From IMG/VR virus record IMGVR_UViG_3300026549_001031: a stretch of 64,000 nucleotides of DNA, one strand, 5' to 3'. Of this stretch, positions 16,571 to 42,734 are shown one piece after another. This DNA is from a virus. Its lineage: Duplodnaviria; Heunggongvirae; Uroviricota; Caudoviricetes. Position 1 is the stretch's first letter. Every line of letters starts with the position of its first letter. The position numbers and the translations under genes are program-made. The notes beneath the pieces are model-generated. The model worked only from the letters and a program-made list of their open reading frames with translations, ran no database searches and had not been told where the DNA came from.

Positions 16571-16605
16571 TACTATATAGTAATATGAAAAGGAGGTGAC
16601 AAAAG

Positions 16606-18414: not shown

Positions 18415-18888
18415 ATGAAAAGGACAGTTAAGAATAAGTTAGTTACAAAGATGGTTAGTACAATTGCATGCGCAGTTGTACTTTGCACAAGTTTAGTAGG
18501 GTGTGGACTTGAGGATGTATTTACAAGCAGTACAGAGAACACTGAAAGTACAGAAGCTGACTCTGTTACACTTGGGGAGTTACTCAAAGTTGGACAGAAC
18601 GAAACAAAAGAGTTTACTGTAGGTGCAGAGTATAAAGTACTAGACGTTAATTATGCAGGTGCAGACCATATATTTCTGATACTCGCACTGGAGGATGTAA
18701 AAGATTATACAAGAACAGCATACGAAAGAGAACTTGGCTTTAGTAAAAATGACTATCTGTATGAGAGTATAATCAAGGGAGATACAATCAAGTTTACAGA
18801 GAAAAGTGTAGAGATCATTAAGAGTGCTGATGATACAGAGGATAAGGAAACAGATCAGAAAGCAGAAAAGGTAGAACAGCAGAAATGA
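18415..18888 (+). CDS. putative lipoprotein (157 aa)
   Basis: Signal peptide with lipobox LVGC (VVLCTSLVGCGLED); upstream GGACAGTTAAAATG initiation motif; stop overlaps next start (ATGA). Confidence 0.6.
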   Translation: MKRTVKNKLVTKMVSTIACAVVLCTSLVGCGLEDVFTSSTENTESTEADSVTLGELLKVGQNETKEFTVGAEYKVLDVNYAGADHIFLILALEDVKDYTRTAYERELGFSKNDYLYESIIKGDTIKFTEKSVEIIKSADDTEDKETDQKAEKVEQQK

Positions 18889-22522: not shown

Positions 22523-22582
22523 AAGCAGTTAGACAAAAATTGTTTAACATAGGACAGTTAAAGTAGAGAGGACATAGTGGAA

Positions 22583-23797
22583 ATGGGAAGTACCAGACAG
22601 AGTGATACATATAAAGGTGTAGTAAGGGTCATTGATGAGTTGTCAGGAGACAAACTTTGTGTGGCAACAGTCAATAATAAAGGTTACCTTAATTATGTAA
22701 AGGGCAGTAAGGACAGTAGAGCAGGTGCTTTTACTATTTATGTGAAGGACAAGGAGACTTGCAAGGCAGACTGTGATATCTTAAAACACAATTTGATTAA
22801 CTATTTAAGACATAAGAGTTATGATACTGACATTGATACACATGGAGAGTCAATATTCAGTTTAATCAATAACAATGATCAGTCATGTGTACTTATTGAC
22901 CCGAAAGAGTCATTATTCTACAGACTTATTGTTTGTGAAAACAAATCATCTGTGGAACATACATCTACAATGGAGGCTGAATTTGGGAAGGATACAATAA
23001 GGTTCGGATTAAGAACACCTGCAAATGTTGTAGGTAGTATTGTACCTGATGAATCAGCACCAAATCACAAAGACATGTATCGTTATGTGTCTAACATGAT
23101 TAATTTTGTTGATCTTGGTATTGTATGCAATCAGAGTAAGGGATCAAATACAATGAGTGGTAAGTTACAGTTTAGATATCATGGAAAGAGCAATGATGAT
23201 TGTATCGGGAACATTCCTGAGTTTACAAGGAATACAACCTTCATGTGGGCGTCGTCTAAAGATTTTGAGAAGGCATATACTTGGTTGGACTCAACAATTG
23301 ATGAGTTATGGAAGCATATTATCACATCAGTAAGTCTTGTACTTGAGCTCGACCGCATTTCAATTAAGCCTGATGAGAATATGGCAGACATCTGTGTTAT
23401 TACAGATACACGATTGAATAGATCACTAAACATGAAGGTTGCTGTATTAGCAAGTATGATCGAGCATGGATTAAGAGTGGACTTAAGTCATACAGAGAAA
23501 AAGTGTGGTACAGCTGGAAATAAATCTTTACAGGATAACAGATTCAATGACATCATGGATGAGTTAAAGAAGCTATCTAATCAGCAGAATGGTTCTGAAG
23601 AGAGCTTTCGTGTTGAAAAGGTGGATTCATATAAAGCAGATGTAACAGACATATATAGTGTAGATGTGGCGCTTGATTCAAATTGGAAAAGCTGTCTTAT
23701 TCATGGCGTTAACAATAACATCACAGATAGATTCTATAAGGGAGATTTAGAGATGCTTAAGAAATATGGTAATCTCAACATTGAGTATGTAGATTAA
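22583..23797 (+). CDS. hypothetical protein (404 aa)
   Basis: ATG 22583 after AGAGAGGACATAG; track start is GTG. Confidence 0.55.
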   Translation: MGSTRQSDTYKGVVRVIDELSGDKLCVATVNNKGYLNYVKGSKDSRAGAFTIYVKDKETCKADCDILKHNLINYLRHKSYDTDIDTHGESIFSLINNNDQSCVLIDPKESLFYRLIVCENKSSVEHTSTMEAEFGKDTIRFGLRTPANVVGSIVPDESAPNHKDMYRYVSNMINFVDLGIVCNQSKGSNTMSGKLQFRYHGKSNDDCIGNIPEFTRNTTFMWASSKDFEKAYTWLDSTIDELWKHIITSVSLVLELDRISIKPDENMADICVITDTRLNRSLNMKVAVLASMIEHGLRVDLSHTEKKCGTAGNKSLQDNRFNDIMDELKKLSNQQNGSEESFRVEKVDSYKADVTDIYSVDVALDSNWKSCLIHGVNNNITDRFYKGDLEMLKKYGNLNIEYVD

Positions 23798-23820
23798 TCA
23801 AAGGAAATTGGAGGCAAGAC

Positions 23821-24882
23821 ATGGAGTTATTAGGAGTGTTTGATGATATCAACAAAAGAGACAGCAAGGTTGGTAAGTACAGACTTCTTGTTTGTGATGA
23901 GACAGATGGAAAAGGTGTATATAGAATTGTAGAGAAAAATGAGTTAGAAGAGGAACTTGGAACAACCATTAGGACTACAGCTATTGGACTTAATCATTTT
24001 GTGTCATACAAGCATATGGTAACAGCTGGACTCATGCTTCAGATGTATAAGCGCTTGAAAGAGGGATTTCCTGCTCTTGCCTTTGATTACATCTGCAACA
24101 TCTGCAACAATGTAGAATCTGATGGCACTATAACATGTAGTGTATACAGTAAACCTGTAATGACACTACGTGAGGCAAAGTGGTTTGAACATAGTGAAAG
24201 AGATATGTCAATTAGTGATAATGTCAAGCTCATTTTTGGCATTACATTATCTTTCACAGACACTAAAGTGGAATATGAGATCAGCCTTCTTGAAAAGAAA
24301 GGACTCACAGTTTATACCACATATACAGGTAAGAAAATTGCATTTGCAGGTACAATTGATGAGGGGACAGACTTTGATTCTGCTAAGTTCATTGCAGCAA
24401 ATGCAGTGCATAGTTTTTTGATGCTTATGAAAAATCAGTTAAACTGTGAGTTGGATCATCCTGTAGTGATGTTATCATTGGAGAACTTTGAGGAATACCT
24501 GTATACTGGAGTACCTGAACTTCTGAAAGTGGACTCACAGACACTGTTTAGACTGATCACCCTTGGTTTAAAAGTGAAATGTGATCAGGGTGTTGCATCT
24601 CCTATTTTGGCAAATGCATACAGAATTCCTGACATGTTCAGGGCAAGAAATAATGTGTGCATTAAGAGAGATGGAACTGCAACTATTTATGATGATTGTT
24701 GCAGTGTATCAATGGACAAGAAAGCAATGATTAAGTTAATCAGGGCAAATGGGTTTGGAGACAGCATTACAGAGTTAAGACAGCAGCAGAAAAGCTATGA
24801 TGAGCAAGAGGAAGTTAGGGTGTCTGCTGAGAATATTAGAAATGTGTTTGACAGAAGGCAGCTTAGGGCACTTGACTTCTAG
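23821..24882 (+). CDS. hypothetical protein (353 aa)
   Basis: ORF with GGAGGCAAGAC RBS. Confidence 0.55.
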   Translation: MELLGVFDDINKRDSKVGKYRLLVCDETDGKGVYRIVEKNELEEELGTTIRTTAIGLNHFVSYKHMVTAGLMLQMYKRLKEGFPALAFDYICNICNNVESDGTITCSVYSKPVMTLREAKWFEHSERDMSISDNVKLIFGITLSFTDTKVEYEISLLEKKGLTVYTTYTGKKIAFAGTIDEGTDFDSAKFIAANAVHSFLMLMKNQLNCELDHPVVMLSLENFEEYLYTGVPELLKVDSQTLFRLITLGLKVKCDQGVASPILANAYRIPDMFRARNNVCIKRDGTATIYDDCCSVSMDKKAMIKLIRANGFGDSITELRQQQKSYDEQEEVRVSAENIRNVFDRRQLRALDF

Positions 24883-24888
24883 AAAGGC

Positions 24889-25098
24889 ATGGTTAAAAAT
24901 ATGGCAACATTAAGAGTAATGGTGATACTCATTCTCATAGGTTGTTTGATTGTAAGTGGTGTGATTGCACTATTGGTTAAGAAACCTGTCATTTTAATAA
25001 TTGGTTTAGTCACTGGTATATGTTTAGGTGGCTTTACAATACAGATGGCAGGCATACTTGATCCTCAATTAAGCACTGAAATAGAGAATAGCTCATAA
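24889..25098 (+). CDS. small membrane protein (69 aa, 2 TM)
   Basis: Hydrophobic helices VMVILILIGCLIVSGVIALLV and VILIIGLVTGICLGGFTI. Confidence 0.45.
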   Translation: MVKNMATLRVMVILILIGCLIVSGVIALLVKKPVILIIGLVTGICLGGFTIQMAGILDPQLSTEIENSS

Positions 25099-25212
25099 TA
25101 AAAAATAAAATGTTTCGAGATGAGCAAGGATGATACGAAGATGTACATTATCAAGAAAGGGCTTACAGAGACAAAAGCAACTTAACATAGCAAAGAAGGA
25201 GCTTAACATCAA

Positions 25213-25518
25213 ATGAATGAGTTTCTTATATTGATTGGTACAGTAGTCATACAGATTTTTGGTGTTTTAATTGTATTGTGTACATTGACTTGGTTGATGT
25301 ACACAAAGAAAAAGATACCTAACATTGCTAGGATATGTTTAGCAATATTTGTAACATTTTCAATGTATATAATCATGGGAAAAATAGTAAATAGGAGGTG
25401 CCTAATGAAAGATATAGCACTAGGAATTTTTGTTATTGCACTGGTTTCAATTAATATTGGTATTGGATTCATGGTGCTTAACAATAAAAAAGATGATGAC
25501 AAGCATGGAGAAAAATAA
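25213..25518 (+). CDS. small membrane protein (101 aa, 3 TM)
   Basis: AAGAAGGAGC RBS; three hydrophobic helices. Confidence 0.5.
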   Translation: MNEFLILIGTVVIQIFGVLIVLCTLTWLMYTKKKIPNIARICLAIFVTFSMYIIMGKIVNRRCLMKDIALGIFVIALVSINIGIGFMVLNNKKDDDKHGEK

Positions 25519-25520
25519 TT

Positions 25521-25566
25521 ACTAAACGAGAGTGCTGATGCAGTAGTATCAGCACTCTCGTTTAGT
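25521..25566. terminator. 19-bp perfect-stem hairpin (ACTAAACGAGAGTGCTGAT-8 nt loop-ATCAGCACTCTCGTTTAGT); terminator or other structured site
   Basis: Exact reverse-complement arms 25521-25539 / 25548-25566 starting 3 nt after stop of 25213 gene; followed by AT-rich promoter-like spacer; no clean U-tract. Confidence 0.5.
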
Positions 25567-25660
25567 TTATGCAGATAGATGGGCATGTTTATGGGCTTAT
25601 AAATTATAAAAAGAGTATTTTAATAATTTTAATTTTTAGACTAGAAAGTGGTGTGGAGCA

Positions 25661-26266
25661 GTGGATAAGAAGGAACTAAACATTAAAAAGCTCGAAGAGT
25701 TTCGTAAACAAATGTCAGGTATTCAAGGAAAGTTAAAACGCAGAACAAATAGAGTGCTAGGCATAAGAGATATGGATAAAGACGTTATATTAAATGGTGT
25801 AATGAACATTGTAGCTGGAACAATAATCATAACAATACTCATAATTGGAGTATTATTTACAGGTGGTAAAATTTCAGGAGACCCTGTAGGGATATTGATG
25901 TTAGTCTGTACCATCTTGCTAGCTTTAGTATTTATGATAATTATACCATCAGCTAGTTTAGCTGTTGCATTTCATAATAGAAAGGTACTTAAGAAGGATA
26001 TTAAGAGGTTTGAGAGTGAGATAATCAGGGCATATGAGGAATCAAATAAAGCATTGAAATTAAATGAGGTACGTGATGAAGTGATAGCTGGTGCAATTGA
26101 AGCATTACAGTCATTTGGATTAGAGGACATCGAGGATGCTATGAAATACTATTATAATAGTATTGAGAGGTTAGGAAATAAAGAGTTCAATACAATATTA
26201 AAGATTGACTCAACAATGGTATATAAAGGAGACATAGATAAATTTGCATATAATGTAGAGGAATGA
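25661..26266 (+). CDS. membrane protein (201 aa; start uncertain, GTG 25661 or ATG 25709)
   Basis: Two long hydrophobic helices (aa 50-75 and 85-110), C-terminal amphipathic region. Confidence 0.45.
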   Translation: MDKKELNIKKLEEFRKQMSGIQGKLKRRTNRVLGIRDMDKDVILNGVMNIVAGTIIITILIIGVLFTGGKISGDPVGILMLVCTILLALVFMIIIPSASLAVAFHNRKVLKKDIKRFESEIIRAYEESNKALKLNEVRDEVIAGAIEALQSFGLEDIEDAMKYYYNSIERLGNKEFNTILKIDSTMVYKGDIDKFAYNVEE

Positions 26267-26270
26267 GTTC

Positions 26271-26588
26271 ATGGAATATAGTTTAGATCAGAGTATTAGT
26301 ATTATAGTACAGAAGTTAAGCTTGGCATCTAGCAAGGTGGATCAAGATAGTCATACAGAAGTAATTGGTAAGACTTCAGCCTTTACATTAGAGACACTAG
26401 ATGAATTGTTTGACAGTTTAAGTGAGGTTTGCAGACATAACTTATATTTTGAGGCGAACAGAAAATTGTATTTTGACATTATTGAGTTTATTAGAGAGCA
26501 ATGTAAAAGAGAGGATGTCAGGTATACAGTTAAGAAATACTTAATCAATTCATTGATTAAGCTCATATGTGAAATAGGAGAGCATTAA
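26271..26588 (+). CDS. hypothetical protein (105 aa)
   Basis: ORF 4 nt after upstream stop. Confidence 0.45.
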   Translation: MEYSLDQSISIIVQKLSLASSKVDQDSHTEVIGKTSAFTLETLDELFDSLSEVCRHNLYFEANRKLYFDIIEFIREQCKREDVRYTVKKYLINSLIKLICEIGEH

Positions 26589-26698
26589 ATACTATTAAAT
26601 TTTAATTGAAACAAAATGGACACATGTTATAAAAGAAAGCTAAACATGGAGAATAATCAATAGTCATAAAACAAATAAAAAGAAAATGAGGGGCAAAA

Positions 26699-27277
26699 AT
26701 GGAACAGGACATTGAAAAACAGGTAGACAAGCAAAAAGAGTTAATTATAGTCTTTGAAGTTCAAATGGATGGACTAGATGAAAAAATGGCAGACTTCTAC
26801 AATAAAGCAAAAGATGCATATAAACGTGGAATCAGGTTAGTAAAAGATATGGTTAGGACATTGGTAGTAATGGCAGTTGCAGTGATATTATCACTGCTGT
26901 GCAATGCAGTAATACATAAGGAGTTTATTAACTTTGTTGGATTTGTGATATGTATATGCATATGTCTTTTGTGTTTGGCACGGATGGTGTTTATAGTATC
27001 AGGTTTAAGTAAAGCAGGTAAGCAACTCGATACCATGGTTGGAGAGATGATTGACATTGATAACCTGATGTTAAAACACTACAGAGAAAGTAATCAATCA
27101 ATGAGTTATGTGATGTACAGAGCAGGAAAGATTGAGGACTTAAAGAAATTATTAGACACTAATAAATATGCATTTATAAAATATGCTGAGCAGGAGATAC
27201 AGTCAAAGGGCTTTGATGATCCTATGTCACACATAAGTGAAGAAAATGGACATAAAACATTTAACAGCATAGCATAG
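26699..27277 (+). CDS. membrane protein (192 aa, 2 TM)
   Basis: GAGGGGCAAAA RBS; helices LVVMAVAVILSLLCNAVI and FVGFVICICICLLCLARMVFIV. Confidence 0.5.
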   Translation: MEQDIEKQVDKQKELIIVFEVQMDGLDEKMADFYNKAKDAYKRGIRLVKDMVRTLVVMAVAVILSLLCNAVIHKEFINFVGFVICICICLLCLARMVFIVSGLSKAGKQLDTMVGEMIDIDNLMLKHYRESNQSMSYVMYRAGKIEDLKKLLDTNKYAFIKYAEQEIQSKGFDDPMSHISEENGHKTFNSIA

Positions 27278-27347
27278 AGAAATAAAAACACAACATTAAA
27301 ATTAAAGTTGGTTTAACACATAAAATTAAAGGAGGACACAGGAAGAT

Positions 27348-27956
27348 ATGGAGATTGGTATTGAATCATCAGATACAAATGTAATGGCACAGTTAATTTA
27401 CATTAACAAATTTCTGAAAAGCATAGAAGCATCTGATGAAGCAATTAAGAAATATAAAGACAATATGGCAATTACATTAAAAGTGAGTGAGGAACTTGAG
27501 GCTTTTAGGAGTAATTGGAGTAATATTGGATGGAGAACATTGTTATTTGCAATTTATACATTGGGAATGAGTATTATTACAAATAGATTGTTTGGTGGTT
27601 TAATTGGAGTGATAGTTGCAGTAATAACTTGGGTCACTGCACTGATAATTTTGTGGTTGGTGCTTACAATCACAGAAAGTAACTATAAGAAGAAAGCAAA
27701 TGAAGCATTTAACAATATGAGGGATGCAGTGAATAAGGTTTATAATGGCACAGGAGCAATAATTGGTACAAAGAGAGTATTGTTAGATGCAGTATTAAAT
27801 AACGAGTTAGACTTAATAATTGAGAGATTAAGAAATAAAGAATTTGATACAGTAGCAGAGGCATGTGAATGGTATAATCTAGCATATAGACCTAAAGTTA
27901 ATTGGACATGGAGAAAATTGAGGCAGGACAGTATTAGTAAAAGAAGTACAATTTAA
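27348..27956 (+). CDS. membrane protein (202 aa, 2 TM)
   Basis: AAGGAGGACACAGG RBS; helices TLLFAIYTLGMSIIT and GVIVAVITWVTALIILWLVLTI. Confidence 0.5.
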   Translation: MEIGIESSDTNVMAQLIYINKFLKSIEASDEAIKKYKDNMAITLKVSEELEAFRSNWSNIGWRTLLFAIYTLGMSIITNRLFGGLIGVIVAVITWVTALIILWLVLTITESNYKKKANEAFNNMRDAVNKVYNGTGAIIGTKRVLLDAVLNNELDLIIERLRNKEFDTVAEACEWYNLAYRPKVNWTWRKLRQDSISKRSTI

Positions 27957-27973
27957 TAGCAAAGGAAAGAGAA

Positions 27974-28411
27974 ATGGAAGAGATTAAAGACATGGAAGTA
28001 AATGAAAACAGCATAGAGGTTAAAAGTGAAGAAATGGATGAGACACCTAAACATGAGGAGATTGACTTAGAGAATAAAACGACAGAGCAGTTACAGAGTG
28101 AGAATGAGCAGTTAAGAAAAGATTCACAGCAGAAAGATAAACAGATTGCAGAGTTGAGAAATTTACACAGGCAATTAGATAAAGAGATGGAACTTGATAA
28201 GAAAGCAAGGGAACTTAGTGAGAAATGGTTAATAACTTCGCTGTTTATTTTAATACCTTCAGTATTTCTGTTAAGTACATTGTTAAAAAGTTGGATCATT
28301 GGAGTATTAGGGTACTTAATCATTGGTTGTTTTATCTTCACATCAAACAGTTTAGCATATAAGCATTTAGAGAAAAAAGAATGCAGAGAGAATAGAAAAG
28401 ACAAAGCATAA
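27974..28411 (+). CDS. coiled-coil + C-terminal TM protein (145 aa)
   Basis: Gln/Glu/Lys-rich heptad region then LITSLFILIPSVFLLSTLL and IIGVLGYLIIGCFIF helices. Confidence 0.5.
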   Translation: MEEIKDMEVNENSIEVKSEEMDETPKHEEIDLENKTTEQLQSENEQLRKDSQQKDKQIAELRNLHRQLDKEMELDKKARELSEKWLITSLFILIPSVFLLSTLLKSWIIGVLGYLIIGCFIFTSNSLAYKHLEKKECRENRKDKA

Positions 28412-28469
28412 GGGAAAGAGGAACAGCATGGGAAAATTATAAAATTTAACATAGGGAGGAAAGAGGGGT

Positions 28470-28925
28470 ATGCACTACATCTTAATTATAGACTTGCATA
28501 GGGGATTGAGAGACAAGGAAAATAAGTATAGTCAGGCAGTAAGGTTTATTGACACTAACATAGGGAAATATGATAGGTCAATAGCAATAAATAGAAAGAG
28601 CAGTGGGAAAAAGAGTAAATGCAAGCTAGATGATCAGATGGACTTTGAGACACAAGGGGTTAAAGTCTTAGAGAAAACAGAGATTAACATAGAGTGGATA
28701 ATGAGTACACTGGACAAAGAGAAAGATACAGTGGATATAGTAGGATGTGACACTGAAGCAAATGTCATGGACATATTGTTTAAATTACAAAAAGTAGGGT
28801 TTGAAAAGGTGAACATATTAAAAGATTATGTTTATACAACTGCTGAAGGAAAAAGTAATAAGATTATGTTGGATCTTATGAAAAGAAACTTTGGAGCATG
28901 GTTAAAAAACAGAGTAAGCATATAA
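28470..28925 (+). CDS. hypothetical protein (151 aa)
   Basis: GGGAGGAAAGAGGGG RBS. Confidence 0.5.
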   Translation: MHYILIIDLHRGLRDKENKYSQAVRFIDTNIGKYDRSIAINRKSSGKKSKCKLDDQMDFETQGVKVLEKTEINIEWIMSTLDKEKDTVDIVGCDTEANVMDILFKLQKVGFEKVNILKDYVYTTAEGKSNKIMLDLMKRNFGAWLKNRVSI

Positions 28926-29004
28926 AGAAAAGGGTATACAGTGAAATAAGTTGGAGCATGTAAATAAAAGTGGTGCAGTGGATAAATAAAATAATACATT
29001 GGGT

Positions 29005-29033
29005 TTGACAGAGTTGGGTATATCTGGTATAAT
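29005..29033 (+). promoter_or_regulatory. consensus sigma-A promoter TTGACA-N17-TGgTATAAT
   Basis: TTGACA 29005-29010, 17-nt spacer, TATAAT 29028-29033 with TG at 29025-29026. Confidence 0.6.
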
Positions 29034-29088
29034 AAATTTATAAATTAAGGGCAGAGGTTATAAACAACATTTGAGTGAGGTAGATAGC

Positions 29089-29337
29089 ATGGCAGTGATA
29101 AAGATTGCATTGGCAGGATGTGGGTTGCTAACATATGTAGTTGTGATGGGATACATTGCTAAGGATTGTTTAAGACTTACAAGAGAAATCAAAAAGAACA
29201 TGAAAAAGTTGCAGGAACAGCGAGTGGAATATGCTAAATACCAAAAAGAGTTAGAGGCATACAGGGCAGAGGCTGAGGCAAAGCGAGCAGAGGTTGAGGC
29301 ATGGAGAGCCGAGGTTGAAGCAGTGAGTAAAAAGTGA
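29089..29337 (+). CDS. small TM-anchored coiled-coil protein with 3 tandem 21-bp (7-aa) repeats RAEAEAK/RAEVEAW/RAEVEAV
   Basis: ATG 29089 after GAGGTAGATAGC; N-terminal helix IALAGCGLLTYVVVMGYIA; tandem 21-nt repeats at about 29266-29328. Confidence 0.45.
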   Translation: MAVIKIALAGCGLLTYVVVMGYIAKDCLRLTREIKKNMKKLQEQRVEYAKYQKELEAYRAEAEAKRAEVEAWRAEVEAVSKK

Positions 29338-29356
29338 AGGGGCTTAGTTAATTAAA

Positions 29357-29539
29357 ATGGACAAGATTACATACATAGTTAACATAGCTGGAGGACTTCC
29401 TTTACTTATTGGGTTTGGTGGTTTAGCATTATATAGTTTATATGATCTCACTACAACAACAATATTAAGGGCATTGAAAAAGAGAGATGAGCAGTTAGAA
29501 GAAAAGGTCCGAACAGAGAGCAGAAAAGAAAAGCATTAA
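29357..29539 (+). CDS. small TM protein (60 aa)
   Basis: Hydrophobic GGLPLLIGFGGLALYSLY segment. Confidence 0.4.
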   Translation: MDKITYIVNIAGGLPLLIGFGGLALYSLYDLTTTTILRALKKRDEQLEEKVRTESRKEKH

Positions 29540-29701
29540 AAGAAGAAATGAGAATTGCTAAAGAAAGGGAAGAGCGTATAAATAGAGCAAGGATCAGGAA
29601 AGAAAAACAATTGGACAGTTAAAAGAAAGGGAAAGACAATGAGTTAAGTAGTAGGTTACAAAGTTTATTTTGATGGAAAACAGTTTAAAAATGAAGATAC
29701 A

Positions 29702-29968
29702 ATGAGTGAAGTACAGTCATTACCTGTAGACAGTACAGATATTTGGATGGATACAGTTGGACATGCTAGAGAAGCACTTGATAAGTACAATAAGCATATA
29801 GGGGAGATTAAGGTATGCAAGGATTGTGGTAGGTACTTCATTCAGTCACAAGATGAGGTTGATTGGTTTATTGAGAGAGACATGAAACCTCCTGTAAGAT
29901 GCATTACTTGTAGGAAAAAGAGAAAGAACGAGAAGAAGCAGGACAGTAGAAAGGAAAAGAAAGCATGA
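29702..29968 (+). CDS. zinc-ribbon protein (88 aa) with basic tail
   Basis: CKDCGRYF ... CITCRKKRKNEKK (CxxC...CxxC). Confidence 0.5.
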   Translation: MSEVQSLPVDSTDIWMDTVGHAREALDKYNKHIGEIKVCKDCGRYFIQSQDEVDWFIERDMKPPVRCITCRKKRKNEKKQDSRKEKKA

Positions 29969-30468
29969 TTGAAATATCAGCAAGCAGTGAGGTAATGGAG
30001 CAGCTCATCAATGATGAAAAGAAAGACATTGAGAATGTAAGCAGGGCAGAATCAATTAAAAAGGTACAGCAGTTCATCTCAGATAAGCAGGAAACTAGTT
30101 TAGATGATGAAAAGATCAATGCAGTGAATAAAAGATATAGCATCATATCAGTAATCGCCTTGGCAACTCTAATTACAATGGTCTTGGCAAGTATAATTGC
30201 ACTGTTTGCAGTAGGAATATTGTGGATACATGTCTTGGCTGTAGGCTTGGAATATGAGATTGGTTGTTTAGTCATCTTGTCTGTTTATTATACCTTGTGT
30301 GTTTCAAAAGACAGAAAACAAATCAAAGATGCTTACGAGAAAACAAATAAAGCAGTCAGTTTTGAGATGATTGATAGGGCAGATGAAGTGATGAGAGCAC
30401 TGGTTGAAGGTAAGGCATACACAATTAAAGATGCTGAAGCAGTGGTATCATCAGTTAAGAAAAAGTAA
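29965..30468 (+). CDS. membrane protein (167 aa, 2 TM)
   Basis: Start overlaps upstream stop (ATGA); helices ISVIALATLITMVLASIIALFAVGILWIHVLAVGL and CLVILSVYYTLCV. Confidence 0.5.
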   Translation: MIEISASSEVMEQLINDEKKDIENVSRAESIKKVQQFISDKQETSLDDEKINAVNKRYSIISVIALATLITMVLASIIALFAVGILWIHVLAVGLEYEIGCLVILSVYYTLCVSKDRKQIKDAYEKTNKAVSFEMIDRADEVMRALVEGKAYTIKDAEAVVSSVKKK

Positions 30469-30491
30469 GTATGATGGAGGACAGTTGAAAT

Positions 30492-31256
30492 ATGGAAAAC
30501 AGCACTAAGAATTTTTACTTGGTACATCTCAATGTTGTTTATGATGGCATTGCTGGTGGATACAATGTCATTGGAGAGATTGACAGCAACAGTGTGGTAG
30601 ACAGAGAGACAATAATTGAAAACCTGGTAAGCAACAGTAGACTTGAGGACATGGATGATGTTGAGTGCATTGAGAGTGTAATGTTAATCAGTGAAAAAGA
30701 TTATTCAAACTTGGTACAAATGTATGGGCATGTATGGTTTGGACCTTGTGGTAATGTATCAGGCACTGATTTGGTTTGTAAGAAAGAAGTTGAGACAGTA
30801 TACAGAGACAAAGCAGGCATTGATCTTGTAGAAATTAGCCTTAATGCAACAGCTCCTTACAGTGGAAATGAGTATTATGAGCATTATTGGATTAAGAAAG
30901 AGTCTTATGAAAAGATTAAGGAGGACTTACCTTCAGAGGAAAGTATCCCTGAATTAGATGGCAAACACAGTGAAGTTTCTGGAGATATCATTACTGAAGA
31001 GTATGGATACAATACAGATGAAGAATATGCAAAGGCAGGAAAAATCAGTACATTTGACAGTGATGATGAAATCCTGAAAAGATTATTGTCAGACTTATAC
31101 AGTGAGGCAGGGTTAGATTTTGACAGTGAGCAGGACGAAATCAATGAGTACTTCAATAATTTGGACTGTTACGTTGACTTAAATATTAAGGTGCCAGAGA
31201 GTTTAGTATCCGACATTGAGGAATTAGTCAATAAATACATTCAGGAAAATAAGTAG
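30492..31256 (+). CDS. acidic hypothetical protein (254 aa)
   Basis: GGAGGACAGTTGAAAT initiation motif. Confidence 0.55.
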   Translation: MENSTKNFYLVHLNVVYDGIAGGYNVIGEIDSNSVVDRETIIENLVSNSRLEDMDDVECIESVMLISEKDYSNLVQMYGHVWFGPCGNVSGTDLVCKKEVETVYRDKAGIDLVEISLNATAPYSGNEYYEHYWIKKESYEKIKEDLPSEESIPELDGKHSEVSGDIITEEYGYNTDEEYAKAGKISTFDSDDEILKRLLSDLYSEAGLDFDSEQDEINEYFNNLDCYVDLNIKVPESLVSDIEELVNKYIQENK

Positions 31257-31570
31257 ACAGTTGGAGGTATAAATATGTATGCATTATTTGAGAGTGTTTT
31301 AGGACTTGTAATCTGTTGTGTGGCGTACAGTGGTGTAAAAAGTGTACATAAAAGAAATAAACAGTGATGCATAAGAGAAAGGGTATCAAACATGGCAGCA
31401 TTTTGGTTTATACTTGCAGTTATTATAGTAGCATTTTTGATTTTCATGTTTCCTCATTTTGAGGGGATTGGAGATACAATTCTTAGGTTCTTTGGACTCG
31501 ACAATGATGACAAGGATCATAAGGATAAAGAGTAATAAAAGAAACAGGACAGTTAAAAGGAGAAAAGGAC

Positions 31571-32476
31571 ATGACAAGAGAAGAAGAAAGACTAATTAAG
31601 AAAAAGAGAATCACAGGGATTGTGACAGTAGTACTTGTGTTTCTAGTGGTAGGCATTGCAGCGGCACTTTGTACAGTGAGGGTACCTGCTGGATATGCAG
31701 CTGTTTGTTACAGTATGAATGGGGGTGTAAGTGGAAAGACATATGGCCAGGGTTGGCACTTCAAGAATCCTACAGTTAAGACAACGAATTATACAGTAGG
31801 CATTGAGCAGAGTTACTTAACAGCAAACAAAAAAGGTGATTCACCTAAGGATGAAAGTTTTTCAGCATCTTCTTCTGAAGGTAAGTCATTAACAATTGAT
31901 CTTACATACACTTACAAGTTTGAGAGAAAGAATGTTTGTAAGGTATTTACAGAGTTTAAGGGTCTTAACGGTGATGATGTAAGAGATACATTTATCAAAC
32001 CTAACATTGTTTCATGGTCAAAAGAAGTGATCTGTAAGTATGAGGTTTCGGACATAATTGGTTCAAAACGCGATGAGGTAAATAAGGCACTGACAAAGAA
32101 TTTGGCAGCAAGATTTGAGCCTTATGGCATTTCAATTAATAATGTGTCAATGCTTGATGTTTCAGTAGACAAGAAAACAATGAAAGTAATCAATGATAAG
32201 ATTGCAGCTCAGCAGGATGCAGAGACACAGGCAATTAAGAATAAGACAAACATTGATAAGGCGAAAGCAGATGCAGAAGTGAAAAGGACACAGGCTCAGG
32301 CAGATGCAGATGCAAAGGTCATTGAGGCTAAAGCAGAGGCAGATGCTAATAAGAAGCTTAACAGCTCAATTACAGAAAACCTCATTAAAATGAAAGAGGC
32401 AGAGGCACGATACAAACATGGTTGGGTCACTGTTAAAGGGGCAGATACAGTAGTAACTGATGCAAAAGAGAAATAA
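31571..32476 (+). CDS. SPFH/band-7 family membrane protein (HflK/C- or flotillin-like) with N-terminal TM and Ala/Glu/Lys/Asp-rich coiled-coil tail
   Basis: TM helix ITGIVTVVLVFLVVGIAAALC, SPFH-like core (...DLTYTYKFERKNVCKVFTEFKG...IKPNIVSWSKEVICKYEVSDIIGSKRDEVNKAL...ISINNVSMLDVSVD), then KAKADAEVKRTQAQADADAKVIEAKAEADANKK repeats. Confidence 0.65.
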   Translation: MTREEERLIKKKRITGIVTVVLVFLVVGIAAALCTVRVPAGYAAVCYSMNGGVSGKTYGQGWHFKNPTVKTTNYTVGIEQSYLTANKKGDSPKDESFSASSSEGKSLTIDLTYTYKFERKNVCKVFTEFKGLNGDDVRDTFIKPNIVSWSKEVICKYEVSDIIGSKRDEVNKALTKNLAARFEPYGISINNVSMLDVSVDKKTMKVINDKIAAQQDAETQAIKNKTNIDKAKADAEVKRTQAQADADAKVIEAKAEADANKKLNSSITENLIKMKEAEARYKHGWVTVKGADTVVTDAKEK

Positions 32477-32505
32477 AAAAAGAGAGTGAGCAGAGAATAA
32501 GGAGG

Positions 32506-33303
32506 ATGAGCATTATGAGAAGTAAGAGTAAGTCATTGTTAATAATGATTTTAGCAATGTGTTTAATCATTGGTTGTGCATTACCAGTGAATGTTGAGGC
32601 AGCTAGTAAGAGTAAGAAAAACACTTGGAAAAATGTAGACAGTATCACAACTACATTGGTAGAAAGTGATTATTCTGATCAGCAAGATGTATATAAGCTT
32701 AAAGTTACAAAGGATTATCAGGTCAGATTTAAGATCAACCTTACAGATGTGGGGGATTATCCATTAAAGTTTGTTGGTTTTGATATTTTCGATGAAAATT
32801 ATCATTACAAAACATCAATGAGAATTGATGAAAAAACAGGAGTTGGATACATTTACCTTGATAAGGGTACATACTATTATACCTGTTATGCTCAAAATAA
32901 TGATATTTACCTTGATTGTCACGGAGTTACTAACATTAAGATGAAACTTGACATTGCTGTAAGAAACATTACTAAACTTCCATCTACAATAGAGGTAAGA
33001 TCAAAATACAGGGATAAGAGCTACATTGAAATTAAGTTTGGTGTGATGAGTACATATCAAAATCAGTCATTGCTTTCAGGCGATAGGACAGAGTGGCAGA
33101 TTGCTACATCAAAGAATATGAAAAAGAATAAAAAGTCATACACTGTTGCAGGTAGTGCTATAGAATTTGATAGGACTGATGGCATAAAACCTAACAAAGC
33201 TTATTACTTAAGAGCAAGGTCTTATTTGAAGTTACATGATGGTTCATATGCATATGGTCCTTGGAGTAAGGTAATCAAGATTGACAAAGCAAAGAAAGCA
33301 TAG
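32506..33303 (+). CDS. secreted protein or lipoprotein (265 aa)
   Basis: Signal peptide LLIMILAMCLIIGCALPVNVEAAS (possible lipobox IIGC or SPase I site VEA-A). Confidence 0.55.
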   Translation: MSIMRSKSKSLLIMILAMCLIIGCALPVNVEAASKSKKNTWKNVDSITTTLVESDYSDQQDVYKLKVTKDYQVRFKINLTDVGDYPLKFVGFDIFDENYHYKTSMRIDEKTGVGYIYLDKGTYYYTCYAQNNDIYLDCHGVTNIKMKLDIAVRNITKLPSTIEVRSKYRDKSYIEIKFGVMSTYQNQSLLSGDRTEWQIATSKNMKKNKKSYTVAGSAIEFDRTDGIKPNKAYYLRARSYLKLHDGSYAYGPWSKVIKIDKAKKA

Positions 33304-33385
33304 CTAAAATAGCAAAAGCTGTGGGGTATAGAGGATATGCCTCACAGCTTTTTGAGTTTATGCAGGGAAAGGAAATAGAAAAGGC

Positions 33386-33796
33386 ATGGATGGTTTAGAG
33401 AGGTTGTTCACTGCGCTTATACTGGGTATTGCACTAATGTCTGCAAGTTTTCTTATAATAACATGTTTTCCAGACATTGGAAATAAGTTAGAGACACAGA
33501 TAGCTAGCTTGAATACAGAGTTAAATGAGAAAACAGCATCAACAGAAAAAATCAAAACAGTTAAGAAAGATAATACACCTAGGGATGATGAATCATACTT
33601 CAACAGATACTTGGTATTTATACATAAGACATTTGGTACAGGTGTTACATATGTAGATGGAGTTAAACAGAGTGATAAATTTGATGCATCAAAGGAAAAG
33701 TACAATAAGCAGTACTATTATAGTCTGGACAGTAAGTTTAATTTGCAGCTTGAAAGTAAGAGTAAATACAGGGCAGAGCATAAAGAAACAGCATAG
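33386..33796 (+). CDS. TM-anchored hypothetical protein (136 aa)
   Basis: N-terminal helix LFTALILGIALMSASFLIITCF. Confidence 0.45.
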   Translation: MDGLERLFTALILGIALMSASFLIITCFPDIGNKLETQIASLNTELNEKTASTEKIKTVKKDNTPRDDESYFNRYLVFIHKTFGTGVTYVDGVKQSDKFDASKEKYNKQYYYSLDSKFNLQLESKSKYRAEHKETA

Positions 33797-33801
33797 GAGT
33801 A

Positions 33802-34416
33802 ATGGAAATGAGTGAGAAAAGCATTAAGAGAGAAGAGAATGACATTGAAAAAAGGGAGCATAAGATTAAAAAGAAAAAGAAGCAACTTAAAAGTATGAGA
33901 ATGGACTTTGAGGAAGAAGTAAGTGACTTTGAAGAAAAAATGAATGACTTTCAGGAAGAAGTTGAATCATTTGAAAATAGAAAAAGTATCTGTCATATTT
34001 GTGGTGATACAAGGATTGATGGCGAGTGTAGTAAGTGTAATATGAGAAAACAGGCATTGCATGATATCATTGAAATTAAGAGACAACTTGGGGATGATGC
34101 ATTACTTGATTTTGATAGGGCAGAGATGTCATTATATGGACTTACGTTCACAGTAGCTGGGGCAGCACTGGTAGTATTGGCTGGACTTTTATTCCAGTGC
34201 TTTTACATGATACCAGTAGTATTGGTACTAGGGTTGTTAGTGGCTGGATACGTTCAGAGAATTGCTAGTATCAAGAGAAAATGGATTGGAGTATTTAACA
34301 AACTGGAGTTATCTGAAAAGTTTAATCTTGATGATTTTATGAACGGCACTATTGATAAGGCAGAGGAGAGACTTAAAACAGGTCAGGCAGACACCTTATT
34401 TGAAGCACTTTCATAA
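33802..34416 (+). CDS. zinc-ribbon + TM protein (204 aa)
   Basis: CHICGDTRIDGECSKCNMRK CxxC...CxxC; helices LTFTVAGAALVVLAGLLFQCFYMIPVVLVLGLLVAGYV. Confidence 0.5.
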   Translation: MEMSEKSIKREENDIEKREHKIKKKKKQLKSMRMDFEEEVSDFEEKMNDFQEEVESFENRKSICHICGDTRIDGECSKCNMRKQALHDIIEIKRQLGDDALLDFDRAEMSLYGLTFTVAGAALVVLAGLLFQCFYMIPVVLVLGLLVAGYVQRIASIKRKWIGVFNKLELSEKFNLDDFMNGTIDKAEERLKTGQADTLFEALS

Positions 34417-34440
34417 TAAAAGAAAGGGAGGGCAGTTAGG

Positions 34441-34908
34441 ATGGAAAAGTTAGTAAGGAGAAGCAATGAGATCACTAGAAAATATCAATTATACACTGCT
34501 ATTTACATGGGCATAGTAAGTATGGCATTGATAGTCATGGATTGTGTTAGTAAAGTGCATAGTATTGCAAAGTGGGCAGATATAGCAATAATGCTAATTA
34601 GCATTGTTATGTTTGTACAGGCACTTGTACACTTCACAATAGACTACGATGTAATAAATACAGGGAACAAATTCAAAATAGCAGTACTATTTGCAGTGAT
34701 ACAGTTAATCGAAAATATTGCAATCCTAGTATGCCTTGTAATTGATACAGTCACAATAGAGGGGTACACAGTATTAAGAGCATTCTTTGTGTTCTTGTGT
34801 GGTTTGATGTTTGAATGTGAAATAGTAGAGTACATTGCATCAATAAAAGATTTACGTATGAAAAGTAAAATTGGCAAGGATATAAAAAAGAACAGCATTG
34901 GCAAGTAA
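34441..34908 (+). CDS. multi-pass membrane protein (155 aa)
   Basis: Four hydrophobic segments. Confidence 0.5.
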   Translation: MEKLVRRSNEITRKYQLYTAIYMGIVSMALIVMDCVSKVHSIAKWADIAIMLISIVMFVQALVHFTIDYDVINTGNKFKIAVLFAVIQLIENIAILVCLVIDTVTIEGYTVLRAFFVFLCGLMFECEIVEYIASIKDLRMKSKIGKDIKKNSIGK

Positions 34909-34918
34909 GGAGAAGAAA

Positions 34919-35344
34919 GTGAAAGTGGTTGAAAGACAGTATCAATTATCATCAATTATAGTAATGTTTGCATTAAGTTGTGCTATGTTAGCAGTAAGTA
35001 TTGCACCTGAATTGACAAGTTTAGCAGTAAAGAATACTGTAGTAATTTTTTGTTTATGCGGTTTGATGCTATTTCAGAGATTAGCTTGCATGATTCTTGC
35101 AGAACTTAAACAGGGATTAACAGATGATCTGCAGTTGTTATTTTCAGGAATGCAGTCAGTTGAAAATCTTGTAATTACTTGTTGCATTATGATAAATATA
35201 GTACAATATGGAATGAATATGAACAGTAGAATTATCATTTTAGCAATGTTTTCAACTTCCTTCTTGATTGAAGTGATTGGATGCACTAGATGTATCAATA
35301 GAGTCAGTGCTAAAGAAGCAATGAACACTAGAAAATCAGTTTAG
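34919..35344 (+). CDS. multi-pass membrane protein (about 141 aa; GTG start after AAGGAGAAG RBS)
   Basis: Track start 34898 is TTG inside upstream gene end; GTG 34919 has RBS at 34907-34915; 3-4 hydrophobic helices. Confidence 0.45.
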   Translation: MKVVERQYQLSSIIVMFALSCAMLAVSIAPELTSLAVKNTVVIFCLCGLMLFQRLACMILAELKQGLTDDLQLLFSGMQSVENLVITCCIMINIVQYGMNMNSRIIILAMFSTSFLIEVIGCTRCINRVSAKEAMNTRKSV

Positions 35345-35439
35345 CATAAGAGAATGAAATATGCTTATTGGATTTAGGTATAATAAGCATATTGTAATGT
35401 TTGGATATACAGTAATAGTTTGACATATGTAATACAGAC

Positions 35440-35830
35440 ATGGGTTCAGAAAATATTTGGAAAAAATTGGGTAATTAAAGCATCAGAAAAAGGGATGAGC
35501 AGTGGTGGAAAATTAGGTATGCATTGGTGAAAAATTAGGGTTCGACAGTGATGAAAATTTTGGTAAGCAGTAGGTAAAAATTGAAAGCAGTGAAATGGCT
35601 ATTTAGCAATTTCATAAAAAGTGTTGGTTAGATGATAAATGAAAGGTCAAACTAATAAGTGAAATCAGCTAAAGATAGAGTATAGATAATACATAGTAAA
35701 AAGAGGTATGCAGTGGGTATAAATTGAGTATACAGTGACTTGTAAGACATTGGGAAAAATTAGCGTGGGCATACATAGATAGACATAGTAGTTGGTTTAT
35801 CTTTTACATATAGAAAATTGGTTTAACATA
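35440..35830. repeat. non-coding region with at least 7 direct copies of GAAAA(A)TT(A/T/G)GG, four of them phased every 23-24 bp (iteron-like array)
   Basis: Copies near 35452, 35465, 35505, 35528, 35552, 35576, 35755, 35810; region 35345-35890 has no ORF >60 aa; contains GGGATGAGCAGTGG (35492-35505) also found at 20784-20796. Confidence 0.45.
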
Positions 35831-35891
35831 ATAATTAGCATAAAGAGTATTAAATAATAAATTTATTTATTTTATTTAGGAGGATTGACTT

Positions 35892-37295
35892 ATGAATGCA
35901 AGTGATTGTACATATGACAAGGAAAGAAGAACATTGATTGATGATAATGGACAGCCATTTGCGGCTTCAAACATTGAGCAGTTTAGGACATACTTAAGAA
36001 TAAATCCAGCATATATGTTAGACATATGTACAAGGACAGTTGGCATTGGGGAAACTCTAAAAAACATGATTAGCTGGGATAGCGCACAGGAGAAATTTGA
36101 TGAATCAGTAGAAAAGAAAGATTACAAGTTCATGTATACAGTGCATTTATTTTTAGAGACAATGTCAGAATACATGAGCGTAGTAAAAAATGACTCTAAC
36201 ATGGCTAATTTGATGTATGAGCAAGATGAAACAGGAAGTTACTTTAGAATTAAAAAGAATGCACTTGATACTATGGGACCTAACAAGTTGTTTATTTGCA
36301 ACGATGGTTTAAGTAGCAGTAGGTATGACAAATATACATCAGGTAAACTTGATTCAGACCAGATGAGTGTGATGGAGATACAGTGTTGTAAAACACTATG
36401 TACATATAACATAATTAACTGTGCAAGGTATGCTCAGAGTATGACATCTAAGAGGGAGTTTAATACAGAAGTAAGAAAGTTTAAGAAAGAGTTAGAAAAA
36501 GAATTGAGCAAGCTTGATGGAGAAGATGCAGCTAAAAAGATAGAGAATGTTAGTGAAAACCTAGGAGGCGGACAGGCAATAGAAGGCAATGGGCATGAGA
36601 GTGCAGGAGTCCAGCAGGTAGAGGAAAAGAGAGTAGAGACACATAGCAATAGTGAGTATACAAAAGCAGTTATGACAGGTGGGGTACTTCAATTTGCTAG
36701 ACAGACAGAGGATGGAGAGAATAGAATCAGGGTGTTTAGTAGTGAGGACAGTTTAATTGAGACTGCTGGACATTGTAAACAATATGTTGACTTCTTAATG
36801 GGAAAAGTAAGGAGTGCAGTAGATAAATTAGTATCTGCATATGAGGAAGTGGATTCTAACTCTGAAACAGTAGATGAAGCAGTAGATAAATTGATTGAGA
36901 ATCATCCTTTTGACATAAACTCCATGTTAATGGATGTGACCAACAGTGTACAAGAGGTACTGGTCATTACTAGAGGTAGAGAGGACATATATCAGGAGTT
37001 AAAAGATCATTTCATAATGTCAAATAAGAACATTCATGGAAAATTGTCTAAGGCATTTAAGGAAAAAGCAGACTTTGAGGATGAAAATAGTTCAGACATA
37101 TATTTAGGAATTGTGTCTAAACCTGTTGATAAGTTTGATACCCTGATTGACCCTTGGCTAAGCAGGGATGAGAAGAGAGAACTTGTAGATGGAGCAGAGC
37201 AGGCAGCTAGGATGCAGACACTTGCAATAATTAGAATGTCTAACTCAATTAAGAGTGATGAGTATACACTAGATACAGTGTGCACAATCAATTAA
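35892..37295 (+). CDS. hypothetical protein (467 aa)
   Basis: TTTAGGAGGATTGACTT RBS, ORF behind long non-coding region. Confidence 0.6.
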   Translation: MNASDCTYDKERRTLIDDNGQPFAASNIEQFRTYLRINPAYMLDICTRTVGIGETLKNMISWDSAQEKFDESVEKKDYKFMYTVHLFLETMSEYMSVVKNDSNMANLMYEQDETGSYFRIKKNALDTMGPNKLFICNDGLSSSRYDKYTSGKLDSDQMSVMEIQCCKTLCTYNIINCARYAQSMTSKREFNTEVRKFKKELEKELSKLDGEDAAKKIENVSENLGGGQAIEGNGHESAGVQQVEEKRVETHSNSEYTKAVMTGGVLQFARQTEDGENRIRVFSSEDSLIETAGHCKQYVDFLMGKVRSAVDKLVSAYEEVDSNSETVDEAVDKLIENHPFDINSMLMDVTNSVQEVLVITRGREDIYQELKDHFIMSNKNIHGKLSKAFKEKADFEDENSSDIYLGIVSKPVDKFDTLIDPWLSRDEKRELVDGAEQAARMQTLAIIRMSNSIKSDEYTLDTVCTIN

Positions 37296-42720: not shown

Positions 42721-42734
42721 TTGGAGGAAATGGC

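Follow-up and report, generated by a model that had tools for sequence, protein, structure and literature searches.

A variable island of small membrane proteins in an unclassified gut-metagenome element of roughly 0.5 Mb

What does a 10-kb run of small, mostly membrane-bound proteins do for the very large genetic element that carries it? The locus that raises this question occupies positions 24889-35344 of a 64,000-nucleotide stretch of DNA, hereafter the window, from IMG/VR virus record IMGVR_UViG_3300026549_001031 (Caudoviricetes). A preliminary description of the window, made from the sequence, had read this island as a dedicated module for membrane remodelling, superinfection exclusion or a holin-like function, and had linked an SPFH/flotillin-like protein encoded in it to an FtsH protease encoded elsewhere in the window. 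We find that the membrane-protein content of the island is real, that several of its genes probably form a family of diverged paralogs confined to this element lineage, and that its gene content differs from one relative to the next. We infer, tentatively, that the island is accessory and that its products alter the host envelope, possibly in the service of exclusion or host takeover.

A concentration of small membrane proteins

The island is tiled by 20 open reading frames (ORFs) on the + strand, which we name by their first positions. Sixteen of these 20 encode one or more hydrophobic segments of transmembrane (TM) length, compared with 8 of the 62 ORFs elsewhere in the window (Fisher exact p = 5e-8); the segments were called by Kyte-Doolittle hydropathy alone, with a 19-residue window and a threshold of 1.6. 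The preliminary description had pointed to a dense island of small membrane proteins, and the locus is indeed a real, statistically strong concentration of them. We compared it gene by gene and with blastn to related loci, namely the clades L035/L036 (~84%) and L038/L039 (~94%) and the short contigs L026-L029. The ratio of nonsynonymous to synonymous substitution (dN/dS) between variants is 0.11-0.5 for most island genes (29357, 33386 and 25213 lie higher, at 0.53, 0.64 and 0.85), and a purine-rich sequence resembling a ribosome-binding site (RBS) precedes most of the ORFs, which together indicate that these are real genes. The three higher values point to weaker constraint, most clearly that of 25213, which was obtained against L035. 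ORF 24889 is doubtful because the gene table of the collection lacks it for the identical contig and the variants do not have it.

Most of the particular features named earlier were borne out. Two proteins with paired CxxC motifs had been noted: 29702 matches the treble-clef family zf_Tbcl (38.4 bits against a cutoff of 24, E = 1.2e-9) with the two pairs CKDC...CITC, and 33802 carries CHIC...CSKC. The 21-bp tandem repeat also lies where it was placed, within ORF 29071 (or 29089)-29337. The proposed secretion of 32506 agrees with the signal peptide in its sequence, and because its lipobox-like Cys is Ser in the L035 orthologue, a cleaved and secreted product is more likely than a lipoprotein; the lipoprotein assignment was rejected on this lack of conservation. 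The AlphaFold2 (AF2) model of 32506 consists mostly of strands and is unusable (predicted local distance difference test score, pLDDT, 42.5). The list of soluble exceptions stood in part: 30492 is acidic as described, 28470 is basic rather than acidic, and the soluble protein 26271 had been left out. The island proteins are not mostly soluble and no homologue is annotated as a virion protein, which leaves superinfection exclusion and membrane remodelling as candidate roles. The features of the island are as follows.

24889-25098, + strand: 69 amino acids (aa), hydrophobic, about two TM segments; weak RBS; uncertain gene
25213-25518, + strand: 101-aa protein with three TM segments; L035 orthologue at 66-68% identity
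25521-25566: hairpin with a 19-bp stem, after gene 25213
25661-26266, + strand: hairpin-family member, 201 aa; TM hairpin at residues 41-106; motifs AYEESNKA and ERLGNKEFNT; kept in all variants at 73-82% identity with dN/dS ~0.3
26271-26588, + strand: 105 aa, soluble, acidic, no TM segment; starts 4 nt past 25661; L035 counterpart at 89% identity (dN/dS 0.14), none among the ORFs of L038/L039 (window 26288-26473 is missing there)
26699-27277, + strand: hairpin-family member, 192 aa; in all variants at 76-91% identity
27348-27956, + strand: hairpin-family member, 202 aa; dispensable
27974-28411, + strand: 145 aa, with an acidic coiled-coil N-terminal part, a TM hairpin and a short tail; in all variants at 64-87% identity
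28470-28925, + strand: 151 aa, soluble, basic (pI 9.0); variable; 81-nt remnant in L027/L028/L035
29005-29033, + strand: perfect sigma-70-type promoter match, TTGACA-17-(TG)TATAAT, 38 nt upstream of ORF 29071
29071-29337, + strand: 88-aa single-pass protein (82 aa from the ATG at 29089); coiled-coil tail with a 21-bp repeat, x 3.3, at 29254-29322; missing from the L035 clade
29357-29539, + strand: 60-aa single-pass protein; variable; only a remnant in the L035 clade
29702-29968, + strand: 88-aa treble-clef zinc protein (zf_Tbcl, PF13451) with a basic tail; variable; gone from L027/L028/L035, N-terminally extended to 134 aa in L038
29965-30468, + strand: hairpin-family member, 167 aa; start overlaps the stop of 29702
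30492-31256, + strand: 254 aa, very acidic (pI 4.1), soluble; conserved in all variants
31392-31535, + strand: single-pass ORF of 47 aa, immediately before the SPFH gene; lost with it in L029/L035
31571-32476, + strand: prohibitin-like SPFH/Band-7 protein, 301 aa
32506-33303, + strand: 265-aa secreted beta-rich protein with signal peptide; variable; absent from L038/L039 and L029
33281-33310, + strand: near-consensus sigma-70-type promoter match, 11/12
33386-33796, + strand: 136 aa, N-terminal TM anchor; variable; remnant in L035
33802-34416, + strand: hairpin-family member, 204 aa; CxxC...CxxC zinc knuckle in the charged N-terminal region
34441-34908, + strand: 155 aa, about four TM segments, paralog of 34898; variable; absent from L029, L035 and L038
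34898-35344, + strand: 148 aa, about four TM segments, paralog of 34441; variable; partial in L038, absent from L029 and L035
35358-35393, + strand: 12-bp perfect inverted repeat forming an AT-rich hairpin, just past the last island gene

Hairpin proteins and gene-by-gene variation

The proteins 25661, 26699, 27348, 29965 and 33802 are probably diverged paralogs, a family of at least five. All five share a layout of a charged N-terminal helix, a hydrophobic hairpin of ~40-65 residues with a very short loop, and a helical C-domain, the last marked by the motifs [AH][YF]-E-x-[ST]-N-[KQ]-[AS] and E-R-L-x-N-K-E-F-[DN]-T. With blastp, 25661 and 27348 find each other at E = 0.04. When the C-domains alone are compared with hhalign, P is 1.2e-4 for 27348/33802, 1.1e-3 for 25661/29965 and 3.2e-3 for 25661/27348, and the other pairs are not significant. 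DNA matches run over both motifs: 36 nt between 27348 and 25661 (ERLxNKEF) and 24 nt between 29965 and 25661 (AYExxNKA). L038 has an extra member with an N-terminal zinc ribbon, which aligns to 25661 (E = 0.001) and to the knuckle of 33802 (E = 0.011). The N-terminal part and hairpin of 27974 resemble those of the family in layout and are followed by a short tail only; we therefore count this protein as similarly built rather than as a member. The two four-TM proteins 34441 and 34898 form a separate paralog pair (blastp E = 3.8e-5).

An AF2 model of 25661 from the family alignment has two ~60-residue helices arranged as a hairpin across the TM region (overall pLDDT 59.6, with ~60-79 in the hairpin and poor values in the C-domain). 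Mean conservation across variants is 0.77 and 0.81 in the soluble domains compared with 0.68 in the TM hairpins. The contrast is strongest in 29965 and 33802, and 33802, which is found in all variants, has a C-domain that is 91-98% identical and a TM hairpin that is 55-71% identical. This pattern suggests that the hairpin is an anchor and that the cytoplasmic parts carry the specific function. Lys and Arg residues flank most of the hairpins on both sides, which points to an N-in/C-in arrangement with both soluble parts facing the cytoplasm. When six of these proteins were concatenated and searched with HMMER against 1.84 billion representative proteins, only their own clusters were recovered (sizeable matches at 56-93% identity), and the family therefore appears confined to this element lineage. 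The family so defined has no relatives outside one lineage, and if our reading of the island is right, its conserved domains on the cytoplasmic side presumably contact membrane-located partners from the host or the element.

The comparison of relatives divides the island into kept and variable genes. The flanking gene 35892 was found in at least 31 variants at 83-100% identity. Wherever a contig covers the position, 25661, 26699, 27974, 29965, 33802 and the acidic 30492 are kept. Gene 29965 is present in L028 and L038/L039, and a syntenic 165-aa gene in L035/L036 aligns with it at 66%. The protein 30492 is held at 74-93% identity with dN/dS ~0.2; it matches phrog_10488, a family of unknown function, at E = 1.2e-5, and a PDB sequence search with it found no match. 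Elsewhere whole genes differ. A block at 22524-25195 that contains 22577, 23821 and 24889 is missing in L026 and L035; 27348 has been lost by deletion from L026/L035 and is interrupted by a frameshift in L038/L039; and 28470, 29071, 29357 and 29702 are short remnants or gone in L027/L028/L035. The SPFH gene and its 47-aa neighbour are both missing in L029, and in L035 only the last 92 nt of the SPFH gene are left. The breakpoints between variants coincide with gene boundaries, and the remnants at these sites indicate that many of the differences are deletions. Between the window and L038 (6941-7846), the SPFH gene is 97.7% identical with a synonymous divergence (dS) of 0.064, compared with 0.08-0.66 for the other island genes (most 0.2-0.66; also low are 26699 at 0.077 and 33386 at 0.136), which suggests recent recombination or cassette exchange within the island. 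Such whole-gene differences, among relatives that are 83-95% identical in the flanking gene, do not fit the dedicated module of the preliminary description. Judged by these comparisons, the island is a hypervariable accessory region, not a fixed module.

The island is followed by a non-coding gap of 548 bp at 35345-35891. It contains ~23-bp repeats with a consensus of ~GGTATGCAGTGGTDAAAAATT at 35487-35582, 35698-35725 and 35754-35766, a motif with no further copy in the window (0 expected by chance), and the region is 84-92% conserved in variants. In L035 the downstream gap has instead received a 223-aa soluble gene, which falls mid-gap in the region equivalent to 35345-35891. The repeats could represent an operator or iteron array.

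Across the 64-kb window there are five intergenic near-consensus sigma-70-type sites on the + strand, two of which are the matches listed within the island. Because these are strong host-type promoter consensus matches, the island may be read by unmodified host RNA polymerase. Near-perfect extended -10 matches of the same type stand at 5146-5174 and 12390-12418, each 32 nt upstream of an ORF (5206 and 12450); their geometry matches that of the 29005 site, which suggests a set of host-polymerase-dependent transcription units.

The SPFH protein and the FtsH block

The protein encoded at 31571 is an SPFH/Band-7 protein, as had been proposed, with a Pfam Band_7 (PF01145) match over residues 37-226 at 92.4 bits against a cutoff of 23.6 (E = 4.6e-26). 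It also matches phrog_200 nearly end to end (E = 1.3e-57), and the solved structures closest to it by sequence are prohibitins. A hydrophobic segment at residues 8-43 with six Lys/Arg before it is predicted to be an N-terminal, N-in membrane anchor, and an Ala/Glu/Lys/Gln-rich, helix-like stretch can be read from the sequence at ~residues 215-275. The C-terminal motif ...ENLIKMKEAEAR.KHGWVTV.G.DTVV is held in common with relatives from gut metagenomes and phage contigs. Relatives occur in 252 phage records, mostly of phages of Bacillus, Enterococcus, Klebsiella and Streptococcus, and a search of GTDB genomes returned no match. The nearest relatives are at 72% in the human-gut record MT835474 (unannotated) and at 68% in PPYE01046458. 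Seventeen metagenome SPFH loci and MT835474 have no other island gene in common with the window, and the TM-protein content around the SPFH relatives is not comparable to that of the island. The phage SPFH family (phrog_200), widespread among phages of Streptococcus, Bacillus, Enterococcus and Clostridium, includes phb1 of Streptococcus phage phi3396 and proteins of large Bacillus phages annotated as 'SPFH domain-containing' or 'HflK protein'. The island protein shares with this family the N-terminal anchor, the Ala/Glu-rich helix and the C-terminal motif; it differs in being variably present within a giant element, where even its 68-72% relatives share no other island gene. In the literature that we searched, we found no description of a function for this phage family, and a comparative review of jumbo phages mentions neither SPFH nor FtsH.

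A single-pass ORF of 47-66 aa lies directly upstream of, or overlaps, the SPFH gene in the window (31392-31535), in L012 (5387-5542) and in L019 (9789-9989). The L012 and L019 peptides resemble each other in loci that are otherwise unrelated, and the ORF may encode a conserved small partner of phrog_200 SPFH proteins.

The preliminary description was also right that the element encodes an FtsH.

8742-10523, + strand: FtsH membrane protease, within a block of HD, TM-protein, FtsH, 2-TM and DnaJ genes at 6575-11394

It passes the Pfam models AAA (1.4e-42), Peptidase_M41 (8.3e-19) and FtsH_ext (9.8e-9), with TM segments at 17-45 and 115-148, and its Walker A/B, second region of homology and HEAGH motifs are intact (GPAGTGKT, IIFIDE, TNRLDDLDPA, HEAGH). 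A large set of relatives at 40-56% identity lies on contigs of 180-720 kb, and the FtsH proteins of the giant elements make up a separate group. The bacterial FtsH loci recovered from GTDB reach only ~30% and so give no clue to the host. We compared the block (window 5-13274) with those of L041, a 720,900-bp contig (1-13300), and L043 (400-12600), where gene order is conserved at 51-54% FtsH identity. The conserved order is one or more large proteins, the HD protein (65% identity), a ~342-aa N-terminally anchored protein, FtsH, a 2-TM peptide and a DnaJ-domain protein; the 2-TM peptide is present in the window and L043 and not in L041, and a homologue of 11394 follows the DnaJ-domain protein in L041 only. 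BspA-like leucine-rich-repeat (LRR_5) proteins are encoded upstream of the block, at L007 1638-5219 (upstream of the window) and at L041 1-884.

No SPFH gene lies within +/-10 kb of the FtsH block in L041 or L043, and in the window the two genes are 21 kb apart. The link between the SPFH protein and FtsH that the preliminary description had drawn did not hold up: the SPFH gene is dispensable, while the FtsH block is retained at the identity just given. From these gene contexts, FtsH is a core component of the giant-element family, its likely partners being its block neighbours, and the SPFH gene is an optional, exchangeable cassette of a family widespread in phage genomes. An SPFH-FtsH cage is topologically possible because the external domains of both proteins are predicted on the outer face, and gene linkage gives it no support. 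A conserved FtsH core block and an exchangeable SPFH cassette, earlier linked, are thus separated.

Carrier element and possible functions of the island

The window sequence also lies on metagenome contigs of up to 496-506 kb, and its carrier is a roughly 0.5-Mb unclassified gut-metagenome element, of which we covered ~84 kb of ~500 kb (the 64-kb window and its flanks). All credible genes of the window are on the + strand, GC content is ~0.35, coding density is ~90%, there are no tRNAs, and all three stop codons are in use. Recoding was rejected on this use of stops, and frameshifts rather than read-through account for the two split genes of the window (TnpB and the methyltransferase 61831/62748). 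GC skew is +0.2 to +0.44 and dips to ~+0.1 over an IS200/IS605 insertion at 16-18 kb. The giant-element family to which the window belongs comprises contigs of 451, 496, 506 and 721 kb with co-directional genes, a GC content of 30-35% and strong GC skew. Few domains are recognised. The Pfam passes in the window are the HD protein (6575), FtsH (8742), the DnaJ domain (10783), TnpA with the split TnpB (16103-17873), several Eco57I-like methyltransferase paralogs, the SPFH protein and the treble-clef zinc protein, and no others; PHROGs added families of unknown function only, and Rfam found no family within the window. Lysis-enzyme, defence-system, phage-hallmark and conjugation domains were absent from the island and the window (Pfam, PHROGs, PADLOC), as were capsid, portal, terminase and tail families from the window and the flanks covered. 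Megablast of 24000-36000 gave no match in 50,697 phage and 72,556 plasmid records, tblastn of 12 large window proteins gave none in the same number of phage records (INPHARED), and six of those 12 gave none in the plasmid set (PLSDB). In IMG/VR, giant-element proteins matched one distant SPFH and one distant FtsH relative (31%) only, and the flanking genes 23821 and 35892 together with gene 59992 found no related loci there.

Several features outside the island add to this picture of the element. The IS200/IS605-type insertion at 16103-17873 consists of TnpA (Y1_Tnp, E = 1.5e-31) followed by a frameshift-split TnpB (16606-17343 and 17514-17873), and coincides with a local rise in GC and the dip in GC skew. 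Four paralogous Eco57I-like N6-adenine methyltransferases are encoded at 14865-15761, 18885-19781, 44097-45041 and 61831-63185; the last is longer and frameshift-split (61831-62721 and 62748-63185), and no partner restriction enzyme was recognised in the window. Further paralog families without a database match lie at 41398-44060, 45348-46733, 49097-57319, 51571-53420 and 57960-58895, with the sets 41398/42735, 45348/46065, 49097/53441/54528/55633/56840, 51571/52497/52932 and 57960/58437. The carrier element seems to be prone to gene duplication in general. A 508-aa protein at 59992-61518 has Cys-rich repeats (CKGDCKGN, CKAECTGC), matches phrog_6085 (unknown function) at E = 2.6e-17 and coincides with a local GC peak of 0.41.

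What might the island do? The explanation that we favor, and hold tentatively, is the accessory, envelope-modifying island introduced above. Its backbone would be the tandem array of lineage-private, diverged paralogs. In each, two helices joined by a very short outer loop would form the hairpin that fixes the protein in the cytoplasmic membrane, and the charged N-terminal helix, in some cases bearing a zinc knuckle, and the conserved helical C-domain would most likely project into the cytoplasm. The acidic soluble 30492 would accompany this array. Between the backbone genes would sit single-gene cassettes that are gained, lost or decaying independently: the phage-type SPFH protein with its small TM partner, the secreted beta-rich protein, the zinc protein, the single-pass peptides and the four-TM paralog pair. 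The island may be transcribed, early or constitutively, by unmodified host RNA polymerase. The hairpin proteins would then tether cytoplasmic partners to the membrane, with the interchangeable cassettes tuning the interaction and the SPFH protein optionally scaffolding a microdomain or cage at the outer face, and the products would modify the host membrane for the benefit of the element, by excluding competing elements or phages or by aiding host takeover.

A pattern of this kind is typical of the accessory moron, host-takeover and superinfection-exclusion regions of large phages and mobile elements; examples of host-takeover and exclusion systems are the SPO1 host-takeover module, T4 Imm and Sp, lactococcal Sie2009 and S. 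thermophilus Ltp. The promoter matches, the closing hairpin, the small membrane products, the ORFans and the turnover of genes make the island resemble such regions. Like these clusters, it has many small genes, host-type promoter matches and no enzymatic domains; unlike them, it lacks sequence or structural homology to known members, its core proteins probably face the cytoplasm and its carrier is unclassified. Membrane location, own promoter matches and variability, the traits of superinfection exclusion, are all found in the island, and they are permissive rather than specific.

Several points weigh against this explanation. The TM predictions come from hydropathy only, and the island proteins have no homologue of known role. 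Foldseek searches of the 25661 model against PDB and BFVD gave no match with E below 0.5, the top non-significant fold matches being ESCRT-III/Vipp1 helical-hairpin remodellers and alpha-pore-forming toxins. Paralogy of the hairpin proteins, in which we have moderate confidence, leans on weak pairwise statistics, with several pairs not significant, and proteins with their soluble parts in the cytoplasm would offer no direct block to adsorption. About a third of the island is gone from the L035 clade, and decay of dispensable genes fits this as well as an arms race does. Finally, the carrier could be a phage, a plasmid or something else, so that superinfection exclusion may be the wrong frame.

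Other functions have to be weighed against the same data. HflK/C-FtsH and prohibitin-m-AAA cages are well documented, and the SPFH protein could build such a cage around the FtsH of the element, with the small membrane proteins as substrates or regulators. In keeping with this proteostasis role, a protein prohibitin-like by sequence and an FtsH with complete catalytic motifs are encoded in one element, and the N-in anchor would place the SPFH domain on the outer side, as is FtsH_ext. We nevertheless consider it unlikely: the element encodes one SPFH protein and not a pair of the HflK/HflC kind, the genes are neither adjacent nor co-varying, with the SPFH gene deleted in L035/L029 and the FtsH block kept, the conserved FtsH neighbours are a 342-aa TM protein, the 2-TM peptide and the DnaJ-domain protein, and phrog_200 SPFH proteins occur in many phage records of ~37-44 kb, a size at which FtsH is presumably unlikely. 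A scaffold for a membrane compartment, in which the hairpin paralogs, in the manner of Inc proteins, A14/A17 or reticulon-type hairpins, shape or decorate a membrane domain for replication or assembly with help from SPFH, FtsH and DnaJ, is likewise doubtful. It draws on the bilobed hydrophobic hairpin between coiled-coil and helical domains, on an expanded family of which four of the five members, with 27974, are retained in all variants, on the membrane-proteostasis genes that the element also encodes and on the non-significant remodeller and toxin folds. Against it, the searches brought up no protein of this kind with significant similarity in structure or sequence, the idea is pure analogy, the family member 27348 is dispensable, and no hairpin-family homologue lies in the 20-kb FtsH neighbourhoods of distant relatives. 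The closest analogues are the chlamydial Inc proteins and poxvirus A14/A17, which likewise combine a hairpin of ~45-65 residues with flanking helical domains predicted on one side and lineage-specific expansion; the likeness is one of architecture, without homology, and the organisms and secretion context differ. DUF2207 (PF09972/PF20990) offers another comparison, as 25661 and 26699 give sub-threshold DUF2207_C matches over the coiled coil and hairpin (21.8 and 15.5 bits, below the 33-bit gathering cutoff). The N-terminal DUF2207 domain is absent from them and the family is itself uncharacterised; the 720-kb relative encodes a full DUF2207 protein 3 kb downstream of its FtsH gene. That the hairpin paralogs are a new class of membrane-organising scaffold, which with FtsH, the DnaJ-domain protein and an optional prohibitin-like cage builds a host membrane compartment in an element of 0.45-0.72 Mb, is by this analogy a long shot. 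If true, it would give bacteria an equivalent of Inc-decorated or virus-shaped membranes.

Bacteriocin immunity genes in Firmicutes typically encode small multi-TM proteins, and tandem diverged paralogs with presence/absence polymorphism would suit an array of immunity proteins, especially 34441/34898, that protects against membrane-targeting toxins or bacteriocins of the element or its competitors. Such an array is improbable here, as the surrounding genes yielded no domain of a toxin, bacteriocin precursor, LXG/WXG protein or ABC exporter, the concatenated island matched no defence system in PADLOC-DB, and the four-TM pair is the least conserved part of the island. The holin-like role suggested in the preliminary description, with small TM proteins acting as holins, antiholins or spanins that time host lysis, fares worse and appears distinctly improbable. 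The products of 24889, 29357 and 31392 are holin-sized, with one to three TM segments and charged tails. The only lysis-family matches in the island are weak Rz-like spanin PHROGs on 29071 (phrog_89 and phrog_214, E = 7e-4 and 2e-3), which lie on a generic coiled coil, and holin matches are absent; no endolysin, amidase, lysozyme or peptidase-type lysis domain is found in the island or the 64-kb window, the conserved members have 145-204 aa with large cytoplasmic domains, unlike typical holins, and gene-by-gene variation among close relatives is not expected of essential lysis genes. Clusters of small membrane proteins are also typical of phages with an internal membrane, such as PRD1 and PM2. 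A set of virion membrane or structural proteins of this kind is highly improbable, given the lack of any capsid, portal, terminase or packaging-ATPase family in the window, variation that is just as unexpected for structural genes, and host-type promoter matches that suggest non-late expression.

If the tentative reading of an envelope-modifying accessory island is true, the island is the site at which an uncharacterised gut element of very large size adjusts how it interacts with the envelope of its host. The carrier elements, at 450-720 kb and with almost no recognisable domains, are perhaps the larger prize, and the giant-element family is arguably a more notable lead than the island itself.

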